From a virus, in IMG/VR virus record IMGVR_UViG_3300048599_000816, positions 1 to 32,544 of that record: 32,544 nt of DNA. One strand, written 5' to 3'. The notes under the pieces were generated by a model. The model made no database searches, was not told the DNA's origin, and worked only from the letters and a program-made list of their open reading frames with translations. Made by a program: the position numbers and the translations under genes. Shown here piece after piece: positions 2,620 to 29,044 of this stretch (positions within the stretch are counted from its first letter, which is position 1; each line of letters begins with the position of its first letter).

Positions 2620-2820
2620 TTACTTGCCAATAATGATGTCGGCAAGTTTCATGTCAAGTAAAGCGTCAAGTTCTTGTTGTGAGGCATTGATAGTTTTGCC
2701 ATACTGTAGTGCATAAGTAATGAGCTCTTCTCTTGTACCAGGTTTGTCATTAGACGCTAGTTCTATCATCTTAAGAAGTTTAATGTTTCTTTCTCTCTTG
2801 CATCGTTTCGCTACAGCCAT
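2620..2820 (-). CDS. hypothetical 66-aa protein
   Basis: ORF track; AAGGAGAGA RBS; motif upstream (2844-2875). Confidence 0.65.
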   Translation of the reverse strand: MAVAKRCKRERNIKLLKMIELASNDKPGTREELITYALQYGKTINASQQELDALLDMKLADIIIGK

Positions 2821-2843
2821 AATCTCTCCTTTGGTTGTTAGTA

Positions 2844-2875
2844 GTTATATCGTGAGAAAGCGTGATACTGCCAGT
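2844..2875 (-). promoter_or_regulatory. conserved gene-proximal promoter-like motif (representative copy)
   Basis: TGGCA-N16-CGATATAAC then SD and ATG of 2620..2820. Confidence 0.55.
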
Positions 2876-2977
2876 GGAGTTGCGAGTTTGTTGAGCATCA
2901 TGCAAGAGTTATGTAAATGGTTCTATTGGCGAAAAACGGCAAAGGGCTCGTAGGCCCTCTTACTGATTGTAGGTTGA

Positions 2978-3493
2978 TTAAGCAGCCTTTGATTCAGGTG
3001 TTACTTCAGCAACCGGAGCAGCCTGGATAATTTTGGCAGTTGATTTCTTTTCAGTTGGTTTGGTAGATTTCTTTGCATCTTTCTTTGTTTCCTTGGCAGC
3101 CGGGGTAGTTACAACCGAAGTTACAGGAGCCGGTGTTGCTTTGGCAGTTGATGTAGCCTTGACAACCGGTTTGAGAGATACCAAGATGTTGAGAAGGTTG
3201 GAGAGTTCGTTGTTGTCTGCCACCTTTTTGATGGTACCGATGATTTTACCGCATCTGCCAGCTTCGAGGCGTTCTTTTGGATAAGGTGTGAAACGGTCCT
3301 TCATGTCAGCTGTTGATTCGGTAACTTCAAGGGTTGAGCCTTTGAGATACCAGGTGTGACCGTTGGCAGCCTTGAAGCATGAGCAAGATGTTTTGATTAT
3401 GGTTTCGATATCTTTGATCTTGATCTCTTTAACTGTGATAACTGATTTGGTTGAAGTTGTTGTGATTTCGGTGGTTTTTGTTGATGTTGTCAT
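2978..3493 (-). CDS. hypothetical 171-aa protein with Thr-rich N-terminus and Ala/Lys/Thr-rich low-complexity tail (histone-H1-like composition)
   Basis: ORF track; AAGGAGATACAAACATG RBS; motif upstream. Confidence 0.8.
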   Translation of the reverse strand: MTTSTKTTEITTTSTKSVITVKEIKIKDIETIIKTSCSCFKAANGHTWYLKGSTLEVTESTADMKDRFTPYPKERLEAGRCGKIIGTIKKVADNNELSNLLNILVSLKPVVKATSTAKATPAPVTSVVTTPAAKETKKDAKKSTKPTEKKSTAKIIQAAPVAEVTPESKAA

Positions 3494-3538
3494 GTTTGTA
3501 TCTCCTTGAAAGTTTGTTTGTTGTTTTGTTTGATAGTA

Positions 3539-5999: not shown

Positions 6000-6130
6000 T
6001 ATGCGCGCGTATCGCGCTTGCGAGCTCATCCCTCGCTCGCTTATCACGCGTCGTATACACTTATACGTACATCGAAGCTAGCGAAGCTAGAGAGCATGCA
6101 CGGCACTCACCCTCTACCTTCACATATACT
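6000..6130 (-). repeat. GC-rich repeat element copy B (ATGTGAAGGTAG-AGG-GTGAGTGCC + GC-enriched tail)
   Basis: See copy A; lies directly 3' of gene 6150..6317. Confidence 0.55.
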
Positions 6131-6149: not shown

Positions 6150-6317
6150 TCATACCAATGCTAAAAACTCTTCCAAAGTACGAGCTGTTTCAAGTGCAAT
6201 TTTGAGATTCGCTATATCTTCTTCATTAATCACAGTATCTCGTTCCGGGCGTCCTGTAAGCTCAACAAAAATACTATTTGTTTTCTTCCTCGTTGATTTC
6301 TGCATTTCAGTCTCCAT
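6150..6317 (-). CDS. hypothetical 55-aa protein (METEMQKSTRKKTNSIFVELTGRPERDTV...)
   Basis: Internal ATG (M24 of track ORF 6150..6386) preceded by AAAGGAG and motif. Confidence 0.6.
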   Translation of the reverse strand: METEMQKSTRKKTNSIFVELTGRPERDTVINEEDIANLKIALETARTLEEFLALV

Positions 6318-6389
6318 AATCCCAACTCCTTTGTTAGATTTCATTTGGATATATACTATATCGTCATCATGCAACCCAACTACCATACA

Positions 6390-7260
6390 ATATATATCAT
6401 GCGCCCGAATTACTACTACAAAAGAAACGAAGCACGAGCGCCCATGCGCGAGTTTTTTTCATACACTTGCTACCTACAAGACAAGAATTGTTCCACGTGA
6501 AACATTTTTTTCACCCGGGCACATGTTTGCCTACAAGTGAATTTCTAGCGTAGCGTGCTCGTATCGCGCTCTTGTCATATACTCTTGCTTGAGCGCTCTT
6601 GTTCACTACCTGCACTTGTTCTCTTGTTTGCATGCGCATTTCCCTCATTTCTTATGCCCTGTCACCCGTATACTAAGTCGCAAGATGCGGGCAGCAAATA
6701 CCGGGCCTTAGTTTCTTATAAGCGTCCTGAAGTCTTAGTATCTATGTTTTGTCTTATAAGCGCCCGGAGACATTAGCGCCCAAGCAGTGGTACTTAAAGC
6801 GCTCTGGTGGTATATTGGTGCTTGTTGTATAGCGTTCTTGTAGCCCTGTACGTAGTAGCTAGAGTGTAGTAGAAGTAGATGATAGGTTCTTTTAAGGTTT
6901 TGTTATGTTTCTTTGATCTTGTGGTTTTTTTAAAGTAGAAAGTTGTTTTCAAGATATTTTTTTATAGTTGTTTTTGATTTTTTGTTGTTCCAGTGGGTTG
7001 TGTTGTTGTAAGCATGTAGAAGTAGAATTTTGTGGGTGTGTGTGGTGATGGGAGTGGGAATATTTAGATTTTCTTCTTTGATTGTTTCATCTATAGACAT
7101 TGTATCTTTTTCCATTCCGTAGTTTGTGAATTTGATGACAAGGGATTTGTGGATGATGAGGGGTGTGTGGGTTGAGTGTGCTAAACAAAACGCGTGGGGA
7201 ACTTAAGTCCCCACGTTTATAGAGGCAATGGAGGTATATGAATTGAAAAAGGAAAAGAGA
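6390..7260. other. ~870-bp non-coding region: two tandem plus-strand hairpin+T7 units each followed by GC(C/T)TACAAG, a GC-enriched block with GCGCTCT(T/G)G x3 and TCTTATAAGCG x2, then a ~450-bp G+T-rich (plus strand) tract with G-runs
   Basis: No credible ORF with RBS; strong strand compositional skew; seen directly. Confidence 0.5.
7183..7215 (-). terminator. rho-independent terminator (CGTGGGG..CCCCACG stem, then CGTTTTGTTT on minus strand)
   Basis: About 50 nt downstream of gene 7263..7901 stop. Confidence 0.6.
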
Positions 7261-7262
7261 GA

Positions 7263-7901
7263 TTACTTGATGTATGGTTTTGCTTTGCCGCAGAGTGTAC
7301 GAAGTCTTATGAGATTTGCCATGCCGTTGGCAATGCGGTAGAGTCTTTCACCGAATCCTTCTTTCATCGAGTATTTATGAGTTGTCATGAAGAATTTACT
7401 GAAGTCGGCTCCCATTTTTGCAACCAGTTCTTTTTTGAGTGTTTCATCTTCAAAGACTTCGGGACGGAGTATAACTGTAGAAGTTTTGATGACTTCGGTT
7501 GCATATTTGTCGCCCAGCAGAGTTTTCAGTGTTTCCTGGTCTTCTTTTTCCTGGGATGGTGAGAATTTGTCCTGGGTGATGAATGTGGCAGAAGTTTTTC
7601 CGTCGTCTGTGATGACCGTGTAAGAGCCGTGGAAGTCGTCTTTGAGACCATCGGTGTCCTGACGTTCAATGCAGTATTCAAGAAGTGGTCCTTCAGCTGC
7701 TCTCATGTTTCCTTCGGCTGCTTTGTATTCCTTTTTATAGCGAAGGAAGTCGATGAATTTGACTGACATATCTTTGTCAAGTTTGATGATGGGTTTGTCG
7801 CCTTTTTTGGGCGCTGAACTTGCTACGGTTGCTTCACCGAGCATTTGTTCGAACGATATTTCTTCGGGTCGGGTTGTAGTGGCTTTCTTTTTTCCTGCCA
7901 T
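7263..7901 (-). CDS. hypothetical 212-aa protein
   Basis: ORF track; AAGGAGATACAACAATG RBS; motif upstream (near 7938). Confidence 0.85.
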   Translation of the reverse strand: MAGKKKATTTRPEEISFEQMLGEATVASSAPKKGDKPIIKLDKDMSVKFIDFLRYKKEYKAAEGNMRAAEGPLLEYCIERQDTDGLKDDFHGSYTVITDDGKTSATFITQDKFSPSQEKEDQETLKTLLGDKYATEVIKTSTVILRPEVFEDETLKKELVAKMGADFSKFFMTTHKYSMKEGFGERLYRIANGMANLIRLRTLCGKAKPYIK

Positions 7902-7956: not shown

Positions 7957-8166
7957 TCATTGCCAACAGGTTTTTCGTTTGCAAAAGTTTAGACCTTCAT
8001 TCCATGCAGAGACATATTCAGGTTGACTATTAAGATATGCTTTACCTCGTACGCCAGCTCTGAAAGCTTCCAGCAAGTATGTTCTGTTCATATAATTTAG
8101 TTCATAATTACATGCAGGGCAAGACATATTGAATTCTAAATCGTGTGTTTCACAGTATCCTGACAT
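7957..8166 (-). CDS. 69-aa Cys-containing small protein (possible zinc-binding)
   Basis: ORF track; AAGGAGAGATTATG RBS; motif upstream (near 8203). Confidence 0.7.
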   Translation of the reverse strand: MSGYCETHDLEFNMSCPACNYELNYMNRTYLLEAFRAGVRGKAYLNSQPEYVSAWNEGLNFCKRKTCWQ

Positions 8167-13266: not shown

Positions 13267-14793
13267 TTAGTTGATTATTGAAGCCAATACTTTATGTTTC
13301 TTATAGTAAGAAATACGTTGTAAAGAAGACATACTCTTAAGTCGTATAATATCTTCAAAAAGATGTGCAAACTGTGCATTTCTTTCTGCATGATCAGGAG
13401 TTTCTGGATCTAAAACAGATTCAGCTTCTTCAAATTGAGATGAAGTACTTATTGTTGGACCTTCACGGAATTCTGGTGTAACTTCATAAGTATTTCTAAT
13501 ACATTCTATCAATGATTCGTTTGTGTCAAGCGCTTTTTCATTTAGCAAAGGATTTTGTATAATCCAAAAAACTGGTTTCAAAAGCGCTCTTGATACTACA
13601 ATTTTATTGTTCTTATTGATTTTTGTTCTTAGATTTTTGTTTGCTTTGATTGTTGCTCTATCGTCTTTTTGAATTCTTGCAGCTCTTCCTGCAGTTTGGA
13701 GAAACTTTACTTTATTGAGTTCTCTTAAAGGAAGAATTGCAGTAATATTAGGAAGATCAATACCTTCTGTCAAGATATCATAATGCATTATGATTGCATT
13801 TGTTTTATCAGAAAGAGCTTGAAGAGTTTTTATTGCTTTCATACGTTCGCAAGACTTTCCATTAATGAAATAGCCTCTACTTGAAAAAGCAATAACTGTA
13901 TATTCTAATGCTTTTGACCATGAATTGAATTGTTCATTTTGAACGAGATCAAGCATGTCAGATACACCAGTACAAGAAACTAAAAGTTTTGCACCAATCT
14001 TACCTTTGCTGTATTTTTGCACTTTCTTTTTGTGTTCCATAAAAGAACATTTTATAATATTATGATCAGTATGTTTACCAGATTCAAGAATGACTCTGTG
14101 AACAATAGGTGGAAGGATATCGCCAGTATCTATTGCGTGTCTTGGCGAGATTTGTGCAAGCACTTCTCCATAGAATTCTTTGTTATCCATACCTCTTGTA
14201 TTGCAACCATGAACAGCAGTTGCTGTAAAGAAATATGTTTGATTGCAGTTTGGAAGGATTTGTTCGACAGATTCGTGCTTATCATTTTTTGTAACTTCAT
14301 GTGCTTCATCAAAACAAGCAATGTCAATTTGAGTTTTTGATAGTCTCGAAATTGATTGATATGTACTTACAATTAGTAAGTGTCTGTTGAGTTTCTTTGC
14401 TTTTTCTACAGCTTTCTCAATGTCAGCAGAAGTTGTTGTGCGTGAGATGTTGCATTTCTTTGAAAAATCTCTACAATCTTCAACAAGTTTGATAACATCA
14501 TCATCGTCAACACCTTCACTACCTACTGTAAGAACATCAAATTTGAGATCAAATTCTATTGCTCTTTTGAGAAGATTTTCGATGAGTTGTTCGCAAAGAA
14601 GGAGACGGTGAGCAGCAATAAGACTTATGCCTGTTTGTTTTGTTTGTAGCGTTTCAATGATTTTGTAGACCTGGACCCAAGTTTTCCCAGATCCTGTAGG
14701 CATAATGATCTGGCCTTTGAGTTGACCAATAGTTGCATCAATAGCTTTTTTTTGGTGAACGCTCATTTCTGAGTAAAAAGATTGCAGATTCAT
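13267..14793 (-). CDS. SF2 DEAH-box helicase (motif I MPTGSGKT, II FDEAHE, III TATA, VI QTAGRAAR), ResIII/phage-helicase-like
   Basis: All core SF2 motifs read directly from translation; AAGGAGAGAGAATG RBS; motif 14818-14848. Confidence 0.9.
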   Translation of the reverse strand: MNLQSFYSEMSVHQKKAIDATIGQLKGQIIMPTGSGKTWVQVYKIIETLQTKQTGISLIAAHRLLLCEQLIENLLKRAIEFDLKFDVLTVGSEGVDDDDVIKLVEDCRDFSKKCNISRTTTSADIEKAVEKAKKLNRHLLIVSTYQSISRLSKTQIDIACFDEAHEVTKNDKHESVEQILPNCNQTYFFTATAVHGCNTRGMDNKEFYGEVLAQISPRHAIDTGDILPPIVHRVILESGKHTDHNIIKCSFMEHKKKVQKYSKGKIGAKLLVSCTGVSDMLDLVQNEQFNSWSKALEYTVIAFSSRGYFINGKSCERMKAIKTLQALSDKTNAIIMHYDILTEGIDLPNITAILPLRELNKVKFLQTAGRAARIQKDDRATIKANKNLRTKINKNNKIVVSRALLKPVFWIIQNPLLNEKALDTNESLIECIRNTYEVTPEFREGPTISTSSQFEEAESVLDPETPDHAERNAQFAHLFEDIIRLKSMSSLQRISYYKKHKVLASIIN

Positions 14794-23582: not shown

Positions 23583-24629
23583 TCATTCTTCGATAATGAA
23601 GCCTGCGCTTTTTAGAATTGCAGCACATTTTTTCACAATGCTTTTCTTATTCTTCCGGTCCATTTCTTTAAGATTTGGATCAGCATGAATGCAAAGTGCA
23701 AAGGTGATATCAAGTATTTCGCCAGCAGTAAGTTTTCCGAATTCTTCGATTGTGCTACCGGGTTCAGAAGTTTTGAGTGCTTCGATCTTCTGGAGATGCT
23801 CATTTTTAGCAGTCGTTTTGATAGAAGCTTTTTCCTGTTTCTGAGTTTTTTCTCCATTACGACGTTTACTTCCTTCAACAGCCTTTTCGATCAAGGGAAC
23901 TTTTGTTACAGAGATTTCTGTTCCTTTATTGAGGCCCATGACTTCATATCGACAAACCCGCATTTTCTGGTTGTTATAGTCATTAGGAACTGCAACAACA
24001 TCCCTCGGATTGACTTTGACTTCAATCAAAGTGCCGTAATTGCCACGAGCATAACTGAATGCAGCCACATGCAGACCTGATGAACAAGTTTCATTCCGGT
24101 TTGGATTTACCTTTTCTCTGGGCATAGTAACAACTGCACCAACATTATTGCAGAAAGTACCTGTGTGTGCATCGACCAGATCACCGTTTCCATTTTTCTT
24201 TACGCCCTTATAACCAAGAAAGCAACCATCATGAGTGATGGGCATCTTATTTGCTTCCAAGAAGAGAAACAAGTGCTCTCTGCTTTCTTTACTGGGATTC
24301 TCCTGCACATTGCGCCAGAAATTCAGAAGTGGAAGATGTGGTAAACCCTGTTTGCAGAAAGCAACAATACGATCGGTGATTGTATCATGTACTTCAACAC
24401 CGTCGATAATGACAAGACCAGAATCTTTGTCAACTTTGATTGTGCCCTGGGAGTATTCTTCGATTTTCGCCCCAACATCCAACTGTACTTTGAGTTCATC
24501 ATCAGATGCACCAGCTAAGAGCATAGCCATGACTTTGTCGTATTTTTCTGTGCCCTTTTCAAGGGTAATGGGACGACAGCCTGAAAGAGAAACTACCAGA
24601 TAATTTCCGGTAGACAACCAATTTGCCAT
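23583..24629 (-). CDS. hypothetical 348-aa protein, no motif recognised
   Basis: ORF track; CAGGAGAGAACATTATG RBS; motif near 24662. Confidence 0.85.
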   Translation of the reverse strand: MANWLSTGNYLVVSLSGCRPITLEKGTEKYDKVMAMLLAGASDDELKVQLDVGAKIEEYSQGTIKVDKDSGLVIIDGVEVHDTITDRIVAFCKQGLPHLPLLNFWRNVQENPSKESREHLFLFLEANKMPITHDGCFLGYKGVKKNGNGDLVDAHTGTFCNNVGAVVTMPREKVNPNRNETCSSGLHVAAFSYARGNYGTLIEVKVNPRDVVAVPNDYNNQKMRVCRYEVMGLNKGTEISVTKVPLIEKAVEGSKRRNGEKTQKQEKASIKTTAKNEHLQKIEALKTSEPGSTIEEFGKLTAGEILDITFALCIHADPNLKEMDRKNKKSIVKKCAAILKSAGFIIEE

Positions 24630-25127: not shown

Positions 25128-27302
25128 TTATATCAGTTTTTTATTAGCTATAAGGTCAGTTTCCATGAGTTCAATGTACTTTGCCATTGCAGTAACTGTA
25201 CTTGAATTAGACATTTCATAATTGTTTGCTATACTGAGAAGAGGAAACATCTTGTAAAGTTCTTTGATGTCAGCATTCAAATTTGAAAGTTGACTTACAC
25301 CAGAGTATTTGTCAATGAGGTTTGAAGGTAAAGAAACTGGTGCTGCAGGAACTGAATTCAAGACGTTTACCATGTCGCTGAATTTTTTTGATTTGAAAGG
25401 AATGTTCAAGAGCCATTTTCTTTCGCTCAAAATGCTGTGTATCTTTGCACCATCAATCATCTTTGTTATAATTGCTGGAGTCAATGCATCCAGTTTATCT
25501 TTGATGCTTCCGAAAAAGTTCACAAGTTTCGCACCACGATTTTTGTTTGCATAGATAATTCTAAAGTCTGGGAGTAAACCAGCTTTTACTGCATAACGAT
25601 ACATATTCATTTCTTCTGTGTTAGTATCAGGAAGAACGAGAATGTCATCAACAAAGCAAACTGCTGTATTTTCAGGTTTAAGTGGCGAACCACTTTCTGT
25701 TGTAACTTGAGTGTCAGTTACTTTAACATATACGTACGAACCAGGTCTTGATTGACCAGAACGTTTTGTATACTGTTGATCACTGATTGTCTGTACATAG
25801 ACTTTCAAAGTGTCAGTTGGTCGTGTAAAAGGAACTTTGGGTGTTGCACCAGATGCATCTTTCACGATTTTCATTTTATCAACTGACGAATAAAGCGAAT
25901 ATGCAATCCCAAGTTTTCCAAGCAATTCAACATCATGTAAGTATCTTCTCATTGATTTTGCAAGACCACGTTTCTCTTTGTAAGCGAGTTCACTGTATCT
26001 TAAGAACTTCGGGTCTGTAGGACGTATTGCAATGTATTCTTCATGTTTTGAAAAGATTGTTGCATCTTTCAAAGGAATGTATGATGATGTTTGATCGAAC
26101 AAGAATATAGGAGTTGTTGTAAGTTTTTTACTAACATCTGTTGTTCTTGTTCTTGAAACTTTACCACGATCAATCTCAACATTGAAGAATTGAAGTGTTT
26201 GAAAATGTTCGTCAAGTCTCAATTTCAATGACCGTTCATCAAACTTTGAAATTGTACTAAAGAAAGGATCATTGGAAGTTAGTTGCTGTTTGATGATTTT
26301 GAACCAGATATTTGAATCACGGTAATGATTGAAGATAGCAGCATCGATCCATGACTGGTTTTGTTTGTAAAGTGCTTCATAATTCGATTTGCAAAGATTA
26401 ACAAGTTCAACGAAACGTTTGTTGATTGCAGTTTTGGTTTTGTCATCGTACTGGAGAGTTTCTCTGTTTGCAGAAATTGTAAGTTCTCCAACGTTGAACT
26501 TGAAAATGATTAAAAAATCACTAACATAGTAATTTGCAAAGTTCATTGCACTCGTACTAATAGGATAGTAAATACCATCAAGCAAAAGTCCATAACCTGA
26601 GTTGAGAAGATCCTGTTCAATGATTAAGAAGTTTTCATCATCAAGAACTGGTTTAAGAACGATAGTATCGAACTTACGAGAGAAGTTTTTGTAGATGGGT
26701 CTCATTGGCCAGAAAGCAGTAGCTTTATAAACTTCACGTTCAAATTCTCTACGATCCTGTTCTTTGATCGGTATGATGATTGTTGTACCAGAATTCTCTG
26801 TTGATTCAGCAGAATCAATGCAGTAGATTTTTCCTTTACGACCCTCTTCGATTGCAGCAACATAAGTATATTTGATTCCTGCAACGATTGTTTCGATTGT
26901 GAAGTTGTCAGCATAACTGAAAGGTGTTTTTGCACCAAGACCAAAACCACCAGTGTAAGTGTCAGATTCACGTTTTGTGCTTGAGCCGTAGTTAACGAAA
27001 ACGTCAGCCATACGTTCTGGTGAGATACCAGGGCCAAAGTCCTTGAAAGAGATTGTCATGTCACTGGCAGACAAAGCAGAATGATTGATTGCGATCTCGA
27101 TAGGTACGTTGTTTTCTGATTCGCGGTTTGCATCCCTTGAATTTGATGCGATCTCTCTGCAAATTGCACCAATTGGATTTGAGTAAAGTTTAGAACGAAG
27201 TATTTCCAAAACCAGACCCATATCAGCATCTTTGATACCGAAACTGAATTCTTTAAAACTTTGGGATGTTGAAACTGTTGTTGGTTTGTTTTCAATAATC
27301 AT
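25128..27302 (-). CDS. GHKL-superfamily ATPase (Hsp90/histidine-kinase/MutL-like ATP-binding fold), 724 aa
   Basis: N-box EIASNSRDA, G1 DFGPGIS, G2 TGGFGLGAKTPF in the N-terminal ~130 aa; no Toprim EGDSA motif seen; AAGGAGAGAGAAAATG RBS; motif near 27351. Confidence 0.85.
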   Translation of the reverse strand: MIIENKPTTVSTSQSFKEFSFGIKDADMGLVLEILRSKLYSNPIGAICREIASNSRDANRESENNVPIEIAINHSALSASDMTISFKDFGPGISPERMADVFVNYGSSTKRESDTYTGGFGLGAKTPFSYADNFTIETIVAGIKYTYVAAIEEGRKGKIYCIDSAESTENSGTTIIIPIKEQDRREFEREVYKATAFWPMRPIYKNFSRKFDTIVLKPVLDDENFLIIEQDLLNSGYGLLLDGIYYPISTSAMNFANYYVSDFLIIFKFNVGELTISANRETLQYDDKTKTAINKRFVELVNLCKSNYEALYKQNQSWIDAAIFNHYRDSNIWFKIIKQQLTSNDPFFSTISKFDERSLKLRLDEHFQTLQFFNVEIDRGKVSRTRTTDVSKKLTTTPIFLFDQTSSYIPLKDATIFSKHEEYIAIRPTDPKFLRYSELAYKEKRGLAKSMRRYLHDVELLGKLGIAYSLYSSVDKMKIVKDASGATPKVPFTRPTDTLKVYVQTISDQQYTKRSGQSRPGSYVYVKVTDTQVTTESGSPLKPENTAVCFVDDILVLPDTNTEEMNMYRYAVKAGLLPDFRIIYANKNRGAKLVNFFGSIKDKLDALTPAIITKMIDGAKIHSILSERKWLLNIPFKSKKFSDMVNVLNSVPAAPVSLPSNLIDKYSGVSQLSNLNADIKELYKMFPLLSIANNYEMSNSSTVTAMAKYIELMETDLIANKKLI

Positions 27303-28234: not shown

Positions 28235-29044
28235 CTATATCGAGAGATTAGTTGTTTCAGCCACCTTTTTTTGTCTTCTTTTTTGTTGTGCTATTCTCAT
28301 GTTTTTGATTTGCTCTGGCGTTCTTTTTTGACCATAAACATTGCTTAAAATCCCTTTTCTTCCATAACTTGAATTGTTTTTGCCAGATCTTTCTTTGCTA
28401 TACAAATCTTTTAATTGTTTTGCTTTTTCTTCTCCATAAAACTCTTCATAAGTCTTTCCTTTTCTTGAAGATTCTCTTCCTGTTATATCACCAAAATTGC
28501 GATTACCTAACATTGCTTGACTATGTTGTTTTCGAAGTTTGTCACCTTTTTCTTTCCCGTAGATTTGTTCGTAAGTCTTGTTTTTACGTTTTTCACTGAT
28601 TAACTTTTTTGTAGATTCTAAGACAATCTTTCCTTTTTGTGACAAACTCATTTTTTGCTTTGTTTTTTCAGAATGTTTCCTACCAGAGAAAGTATCTCCT
28701 CCATCACCCCCAGGTGTCAAATTTGTTAAAGGTCCTACAAGTCCATTTTGTACTTTTCTTCGGCCTATGTTCTTTATCAAGTCTATTTCTAGATCATTTG
28801 CTTCTTTAAGGAAAAGATTTTCTTTTACTTTGATAATTATTGGTGTTAAACCTAAACTTACAATCTTTTGAATTTTCTTTGATTTCATAGTTCCATCAAG
28901 ATAAACCAAATGATCTAAGAATCTTTTGTTTCTTCCTCTTCCAACATAAAAAGGCTCGTAATCAAATTCATACTTGTCATACTTGTATTTTTTGTTTTTT
29001 CTTGGATCAAAGTAGATGTATACATAAAAGTTGTTCTTTAACAC
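28235..29044 (-). CDS. GIY-YIG homing endonuclease with three NUMOD3-like repeats (GRKHSEKTKQKMS.. / GRESSRKGKTYEEF.. / GKNNSSYGRKG..), GTG start
   Basis: N-terminal VYIYFD...PFYVGRGRNKRFLDH matches GIY-(10-11)-YIG + R + H pattern (established family signature); RBS AAGGAGA buried in a perfect hairpin; stop codon is the TAG of a motif copy. Confidence 0.8.
   Translation of the reverse strand: MLKNNFYVYIYFDPRKNKKYKYDKYEFDYEPFYVGRGRNKRFLDHLVYLDGTMKSKKIQKIVSLGLTPIIIKVKENLFLKEANDLEIDLIKNIGRRKVQNGLVGPLTNLTPGGDGGDTFSGRKHSEKTKQKMSLSQKGKIVLESTKKLISEKRKNKTYEQIYGKEKGDKLRKQHSQAMLGNRNFGDITGRESSRKGKTYEEFYGEEKAKQLKDLYSKERSGKNNSSYGRKGILSNVYGQKRTPEQIKNMRIAQQKRRQKKVAETTNLSI

Follow-up and report, generated by a model that had tools for sequence, protein, structure and literature searches.

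We examined a viral DNA stretch of 32,544 nucleotides (IMG/VR record IMGVR_UViG_3300048599_000816, positions 1–32,544; hereafter the window), focusing on positions 6,390–7,260. From the sequence alone, this region of about 870 bp had been described as a candidate origin, packaging site or regulatory hub. It lies between two minus-strand genes, with the terminator of a gene for a 212-amino-acid (aa) protein on its right and the promoter of a gene for a 55-aa protein on its left. The comparison with related loci showed that it consists of two unrelated things. The left part (6395–6850) is a conserved non-coding hub that contains a canonical chromosomal-type parS, the predicted binding site of ParB/Spo0J, and the right part is a remnant left by a deletion. 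Our best reading of the left part, based on sequence comparison, is a cis-acting DNA hub placed between a block of G-poor genes and an early-type promoter. The features are listed in Table 1, in which ORF denotes an open reading frame and L numbers denote related loci.

Table 1. Features of the region, its surroundings and its counterparts in relatives
Feature	Position	Strand	Details
parS (canonical chromosomal type; predicted ParB/Spo0J site)	6489–6504		plus strand TGTTCCACGTGAAACA, minus strand TGTTTCACGTGGAACA
Island A	6650–6722	minus	63/73 columns invariant (86%), no gaps; AAGAWACTARGGCCCRGTATTTGCTGCCCGCATCTTGCGACTTAGTAT..GTGTGACAGGGYATAAGAA
Island B	6473–6547		parS abutted by an A7 tract, with two CTTGTAGG words as brackets; 66/75 columns invariant (88%), no gaps
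Island C	6395–6450		ATGGGCGCTCG..GCTTCGTTT.TTTTG...TTCGGGC.CATGATATATA; 46/56 columns invariant (82%), no gaps
Variable spacer	6548–6649		CAAGAG(CGC) repeats with lineage-specific indels; 32% invariant, 31 gapped columns
Iteron-like GRRCGCT repeats, then T/A-rich bases (GGGCGCTTATAAG type)	6721–6837	minus	five on the same strand, irregular spacing of 16–40 bp
A7/T7 tracts	6453–6459 and 6505–6511		52 bp apart, about five helical turns
G-poor tail, from remnant gene to hub	6851–6929	minus	near-identical in L008
5'-truncated remnant of a G-poor gene	6930–7199	minus	90 open codons; 61-aa ATG ORF at 6930–7115
Deletion junction	7160–7167		8-bp microhomology CACACCCC (gene strand); post-terminator sequence joined to mid-gene
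Intrinsic terminator of the upstream 212-aa gene (7263–7901)	7193–7215	minus	−14.3 kcal/mol, z = −2.85; terminator scan
Promoter of the downstream 55-aa gene	6355–6386	minus	ATGGTAG ... ACGATATAGT; nCGATATAGT copy at 6364–6355
55-aa gene, first after the hub	6150–6317	minus	good ribosome-binding site; directly left of the flagged region
DEAD-type helicase gene	13267–14793		
rIIB	23583–24629		
rIIA	25128–27302		
Hubs in distant relatives	L012 430–745; L015 60–1010; L006		L006 truncated

A parS site in a conserved non-coding hub

Relatives of the window were recovered through the 212-aa protein, which served as the marker. At the DNA level, L008 and L013 were about 88–91% identical to the window and L002 and L009 about 80%, and L015 and L016 shared 54–56% identity in the marker protein. 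No DNA similarity to the window was detected among 50,697 phage records, and the 212-aa protein had no match in the same collection. The 462-kb record LR756500.1, which gave the best rIIA match (34% identity; GC content 24%), contained no parS, no ACTAGGGCCC and no copy of the phage promoter motif, and is too distant to inform the analysis.

The left part contained no conserved ORF on either strand between about 6850 and 6395, and it is non-coding because indels among the relatives break every ORF in both directions. The sequence-only reading had called the entire 870 bp non-coding, which was borne out for 6395–6850 and failed for 6930–7199, where a 90-codon open frame has a homologue in L008. 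Conservation was scored as invariant columns in a five-sequence alignment. Islands A, B and C each reached 82–88% invariant columns, above the 73% of the adjacent 55-aa coding sequence (6317–6150), and the segments between the islands (6860–6723 and 6649–6548) had 9–32%. Island C included one further GGGCGCT repeat, and a weak minus-strand hairpin at this island was not kept in L002 or L009. Exact or degenerate island A patterns were found neither in IMG/VR nor in 185,579 genomes, and a pattern search of metagenomes returned one further contig, L013, of the same type as L008. A profile search of all related loci with nhmmer recovered only a partial hub in L012 and the palindromes of L015.

The repeats reported earlier were recovered as well, namely the plus-strand T7 runs, the GCGCTCT(T/G)G-type repeats (4 copies) and two copies each of TCTTATAAGCG and GTAGAAGTAGA. 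The GRRCGCT motif was concentrated in the hub, with 8 of the 13 window copies at 6437–6837, seven of them on the minus strand (whole-window expectation 5.3). It is kept among the relatives, with varying copy number and spacing, and the hub of L015 likewise has the word GCGCTT(T)AAG. GCGC sites were likewise enriched, 9 of the window's 40 lying within 6401–6799. The phasing of the A-tracts would imply a bend in the DNA. The hallmark word of the hub family is ACTAGGGCCC, which is shared with non-coding DNA of L012, L015 and L006, and ACTAGGG was absent from 70 kb of flanking sequence. In the distant relatives the hubs stand elsewhere in the gene order, each after G-poor sequence and ahead of a promoter, and the hub of L015/L016, a non-coding stretch of about 900 bp, shares the ACTAGGGCCC, CTTGTAGG and GCGCTTAAG words. 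In L138, a 424-kb relative, no hub was found within 20 kb of the marker gene. Given the absence of genes, the conserved islands, the same-strand repeats and a recognisable predicted protein site, "regulatory hub" is a fair label for 6395–6850.

The protein site is the near-perfect 16-bp palindrome at 6489–6504, which had been noticed before, read as a terminator hairpin and missed as a canonical parS. It matches the consensus TGTTNCACGTGAAACA with zero mismatches and is one mismatch away from a perfect palindrome. This consensus is shared by Firmicutes, Actinobacteria and Proteobacteria, including Bacillus, Corynebacterium, Burkholderia chromosome 1 and others (PMC7022226). The identical 16-mer is present in experimental papers on B. 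subtilis ParB–parS, and the chance expectation of such a match is 0.0006 per window. The site read TGTTTCACGTGGAACA in the window, L008, L013, L017 and L009, and TGTTCCACGTGAAACA in L002. Among the five variants of the window clade, 14 of the 16 positions were invariant and only positions 5 and 12 changed, that is, the N of the consensus and its palindromic mirror. L002 carries both changes, so that the orientation of the site is flipped and the consensus retained. This confinement of variation to the tolerated position points to purifying selection. Since the asymmetric position lies on opposite halves of the site in the window and in L002, the palindrome cannot in both be a G-U-tolerant RNA hairpin of one strand, and a double-stranded protein site can explain both sequences.

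The distant loci L015 and L016 contained two TGTTCCACGTGGAACA copies 88 bp apart, close to the Myxococcus consensus TGTTCCACGTGGAACG (PMC7022226). A 12-bp palindrome, ATATGCGCATAT, abuts the second of these sites (L015 360–396), and its central 10 bp are those of the Burkholderia chromosome-2 parS gTTTATGCGCATAAAc (PMC7022226). L015 also contains a GC-rich non-coding module of about 130 nt (790–930 and 1440–1575) ahead of two consecutive genes, one of which encodes an FtsK/SpoIIIE-like ATPase.

The ParB box II motif (GERRxRA) was found in no ORF of 80 aa or longer, either in the window or in the 17 related loci, and no ParB or ParA Pfam family was present among the called genes of the window and the related loci. 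A CCCGGG at 6514–6519, beside parS, was considered as a Noc-binding site and rejected, as it is not conserved in L002 or L009 and its flanks presumably do not match a Noc-binding site.

The G+T-skewed tract is a deletion remnant

The relatives align with the window up to the terminator and then again leftwards from about 6730, and L008, L009 and L002 carry 1.3–3.4 kb of extra genes in between. L008 could be aligned over the entire window tract 7170–6000 and possesses at this place an intact 126-aa gene with 1.7 kb of further genes. By BLASTP, the open frame at 6930–7199 matched residues 50–126 of the L008 126-aa ORF with 89% identity (E = 6e-51), and all indels were in frame. L009 retains a 34-aa ORF that shares the motif TPLIVHK.LVIKFT.YG. 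The 61-aa ATG ORF within the remnant has neither a ribosome-binding site nor a promoter, in agreement with the earlier statement that the region contains no ORF with a ribosome-binding site.

The junction itself could be located. L008 contains the 8-mer CACACCCC twice, once after the terminator (about 1795–1802) and once within the 126-aa ORF (about 3511–3518), and the window junction combines the flank of the left copy with the flank of the right copy. This arrangement indicates that the window lost these genes by deletion at an 8-bp microhomology beside the terminator. Insertions and deletions recur just past the terminator, at window positions 7152–7170 and at the same site in L002, L008 and L009.

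The minus (gene) strand of 6830–7200 contained only 5–11% G, which substantiates the G+T skew of the opposite strand. The antisense strand is G+T-rich and carries G-runs because G is extremely scarce on the coding strand of this gene block. The strand asymmetry comes from the truncated gene and is therefore a property of the gene block rather than an origin signal, so that neither it nor the G-runs can serve as an argument for an origin or a packaging site at the hub. The suggested G-quadruplex capacity found no support either, as the tract contained no canonical motif and only two-G-run patterns. Judged from these comparisons, the tract at 6830–7200 is the antisense of a truncated G-poor gene, apparently without a function of its own. 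As a practical lesson, a strong local anomaly in strand composition can be the deletion remnant of a G-poor gene and not a signal.

Blocks of this kind were present directly upstream of the hub in every case (window 6830–7200; L008 1900–3744; L009 5630–6860; L012 1–430; L015 60–300), with 7–13% G on the sense strand against 19–25% elsewhere and about 68–75% A+C. Selection on the mRNA or a mutational bias could be the cause.

Possible functions of the hub

We interpret the hub as a cis-acting DNA element that would load ParB onto the phage genome, a reading to which we assign a probability of about 55%. Binding of ParB and all downstream effects, including spreading dependent on cytidine triphosphate (CTP), are what we infer from the sequence. 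In this scheme, a ParB dimer would recognise the 16-bp palindrome; the protein could be supplied by the host, or by a phage ParB of the same specificity encoded elsewhere in a genome of at least 427 kb. ParB would then close as a CTP-dependent clamp and slide onto the flanking phage DNA. The resulting partition-type complex might work through ParA or SMC to position or segregate phage genomes, a carrier or episomal state being one example, or might modulate the early promoter about 150 bp away by KorB-like silencing; titration of host ParB would be a further option. About 110 bp separate the centre of parS from the −35-like box of the 55-aa gene promoter, which lies downstream of it. The other conserved elements, namely the GRRCGCT repeats, the ACTAGGGCCC island and the phased A-tracts, are most likely bound by additional proteins and could belong to an origin beside a centromere, as in bacterial chromosomes.

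Several findings weigh against this interpretation. The window has a single parS in 32.5 kb, and the second-best candidate departs from the consensus at 2 positions, with its core disrupted; chromosomes usually carry several parS sites. The L012 hub has a degenerate remnant of the site (core CAAGTG, 11/16 positions counted by eye) and L138 has no parS within 20 kb of the marker gene; parS is therefore not a universal part of the hub. In addition, the reading explains only the smaller part of the hub, and the window's own copy of island A has changes that weaken its putative hairpin or palindrome.

The resemblance to known systems is partial in each case. With chromosomal parS/ParB (Spo0J), a near-universal bacterial system for chromosome segregation and SMC loading, the window site shares the same 16 bp, the palindromic form, the tolerance at the N position and a non-coding, repeat-rich setting; it differs in its location on a huge phage, in occurring once per 32 kb and in the lack of an adjoining parAB operon. 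Plasmid-prophage partition cassettes segregate extrachromosomal phage genomes (see also PMC7157519 and PMC10286716). The parABS of P1, the sopABC of N15 and the parABS of actinobacteriophages likewise place a centromere-like site on a phage genome, but these cassettes encode their own ParA and ParB beside an element-specific parS, whereas the window site is an orphan of host-chromosome type. Furthermore, the window phage, unlike plasmid-prophages, has rIIA and rIIB and an early-gene architecture typical of lytic phages. The site also resembles the KorB–OB system of plasmid RK2, a long-range transcriptional repressor system, in that a ParB-type palindrome stands about 110–150 bp upstream of a promoter, which a sliding clamp could reach and silence; the two sites differ in sequence, homologues of KorA or KorB were not identified, and a regulatory effect is purely hypothetical in the window. 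KorB is a ParB-family CTP clamp (PMC13229309).

The hub might alternatively be a replication origin, with the GRRCGCT and CAAGAG repeats as iterons, the A-tracts and ATGATATATA as the unwinding region and parS merely origin-proximal. This reading would be compatible with ParB loading, and we consider it unlikely. The eight clustered GRRCGCT repeats, seven in one orientation, the additional CAAGAG repeats and the phased A7 tracts would suit an origin, and the boundary from G-poor block through hub to genes of normal G content recurs in L008, L009, L012 and L015. Bacterial parS sites cluster near oriC (PMC7022226), and extrachromosomal mycobacteriophage prophages are reported to pair origins with parABS (PMC7157519). 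The skew test proposed with the original suggestion gave a divided answer when computed for the window: cumulative GC skew had a local minimum of origin-type polarity at 6700–6800, but the global minimum was at the right end (32300). Moreover, the switch extends no further than about 2 kb in either direction and follows gene blocks of extreme composition. No initiator, primase, Rep or DnaA match was present among the flanking genes, no DnaA box was seen by eye, and the repeat spacing is irregular and differs among relatives. Compared with the iteron-type origins of lambda and P1 (oriR) and the promoter-linked origins of T4 and T7, the hub shows similar same-strand repeats, A/T tracts, a strong promoter beside them and a local GC-skew switch, but it lacks an adjacent initiator gene, its repeats are irregular and its skew largely reflects gene-block composition.

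It is more doubtful still that island A, or even the hub as a whole, functions as a structured minus-strand RNA, as a 3' untranslated region or non-coding RNA with a hairpin and a self-complementary AGGGCCC loop. Island A is near-invariant, and in L008 and L009 there is no terminator between the G-poor genes and the hub; in the window, by contrast, a strong terminator precedes the hub, and the interval between the two has no promoter. Comparison by eye of stem 1 (GGGC-GC/GCUGCCC in L008, GAGCAGC/GCUGCUC in L012) and stem 2 (AUACU/GGUAU in L008, AAACU/AGUUU in L012) showed two compensatory and two G-U to A-U changes, all from one divergent sequence; the G-U pairs of the stems can form on the minus strand only, and in L008 the UGCCC/GGGCA pairing has a single G-U in place of a G-C. 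However, both stems are broken in the window and are not kept in L015 or L006, RNAalifold scored 3 of 81 pairs as covarying, and the hub folded no better than shuffled sequences (minus strand z = −0.76, plus strand z = −1.19). Rfam gave no match at the gathering threshold and only chance-level matches at E ≥ 0.4. There is also little likelihood that the parS match arose by chance or persists as a relic without function, within a hub conserved for other reasons, such as control sequences of the early promoter. The single site and its degeneration in L012 speak for such a reading, but the low chance expectation, the restriction of variation to the tolerated position, the duplication of the site in L015 and the position of island B among the most conserved stretches of the region all argue against it.

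The least credible proposals are those of the sequence-only reading itself, in which the hairpin+T7 units would terminate plus-strand transcription or the region would serve for packaging as a pac/cos site. The T7 runs do follow short plus-strand palindromes, but the stems are weak and non-significant (−9.0 and −4.6 kcal/mol; z = −1.7 and −0.8), the terminator scan found none on the plus strand within 6390–7260, and from about 1700 to 32544 there are no plus-strand genes to end. As for packaging, a parS cluster lies between terS and terL in one unrelated phage contig, and the fragmentary contigs of three relatives (L006, L012 and L017) stop 70–500 bp from the hub. The window contains no terminase gene, however, and contig ends are expected at a hypervariable indel hotspot, where assemblies probably break because the sequence is variable.

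Orphan sites of the same type were common in other viral contigs. A scan of IMG/VR for the parS consensus returned at least 120 contigs (L018–L137). Among the matches listed, there were 171 sites with at most one mismatch, 119 of them (70%) perfect palindromes; ORFs of 100 aa or more contained 38% of the sites while covering 80% of the bases; 28 loci had two to six sites; and a ParB-like box II ORF was nearby in 6 of the 120 loci. Genes for terminase, capsid, portal or connector proteins were present in the three multi-site contigs that were examined. Orphan parS sites of the canonical type are frequent in genuine phage contigs, most of them between genes. L048 has five parS sites between terS and terL (2657–3429), and L087, L024 and L051 are further example loci. 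Host-type orphan parS sites in phage genomes were not found described in the literature searched, an absence that is no proof of novelty.

To our knowledge, phage use of ParB–parS has been confined to plasmid-prophages that supply both ParAB and the site themselves. In a phage of 427 kb or more, a strongly conserved hub with an orphan parS of host type suggests a possible direct hijacking of host ParB, and makes the positioning, maintenance or silencing of very large phage genomes in the cell testable. On a broader and more tentative level, huge phages and many ordinary tailed phages may deliberately carry such sites, exploiting the host's ParB–CTP clamp together with ParA or SMC for positioning, segregation, compaction or transcriptional silencing of their genomes, or drawing ParB away from the host chromosome. 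Enterobacteriaceae, as far as we know, lack a ParB–parS system, so the site is also a possible clue to host range.

Promoters and neighbouring genes

The window belongs to a very large phage with a genome of at least 427 kb. Contigs in the 0.2–1 Mb range carry proteins identical to window proteins, the longest being 426,911 nt. From about 1866 rightwards, the window has genes on the minus strand only, and nCGATATAGT occurred on this strand in 27 copies (window 2311–30445) against 1.3 expected. Every copy stood 20–40 nt ahead of a ribosome-binding site and a small ORF, and the aligned promoters showed a TTGGCA/TGGTAG box upstream. The nCGATATAGT element is the standard promoter of this phage. 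Its phage-specific, promoter-like consensus, tTGGCA - ~16 nt - TCTC nCGATATAGT, precedes almost all small genes, and the G-poor genes of the relatives have a variant, CACGATATAA/C.

The terminator at 7215–7193 is kept in L008 and L009 and is the true end of the upstream transcription unit. In that unit, the 212-aa ORF (7263–7901) and a 69-aa CxxC-rich ORF (7957–8166), both on the minus strand, are separate in the window, P0006 and P0009, and are fused into one protein of 277–314 aa in seven relatives, a natural split/fusion polymorphism. The 55-aa protein downstream of the hub had no Pfam match, and its AlphaFold model was a two-helix hairpin with a mean pLDDT (predicted local distance difference test score) of 73.6. 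The possibility that it is a ribbon-helix-helix centromere-binding protein was considered and not supported, given the lack of a Pfam match and a two-helix hairpin model of moderate confidence.

A scan for transfer RNA and transfer-messenger RNA genes found nothing in the window. Between the DUF932 gene and rIIA, a minus-strand ORF (28235–29044) combines a GIY-YIG (LEM-3-like) domain with a NUMOD3 motif and is likely a homing endonuclease. Finally, the non-coding stretch past the 55-aa ORF and a 30-aa ORF contains the minus-strand hairpin GCGAGC-GAGGGATGA-GCTCGC (6020–6040), which is kept in L002, L009 and L017 and may be a terminator or another binding site.

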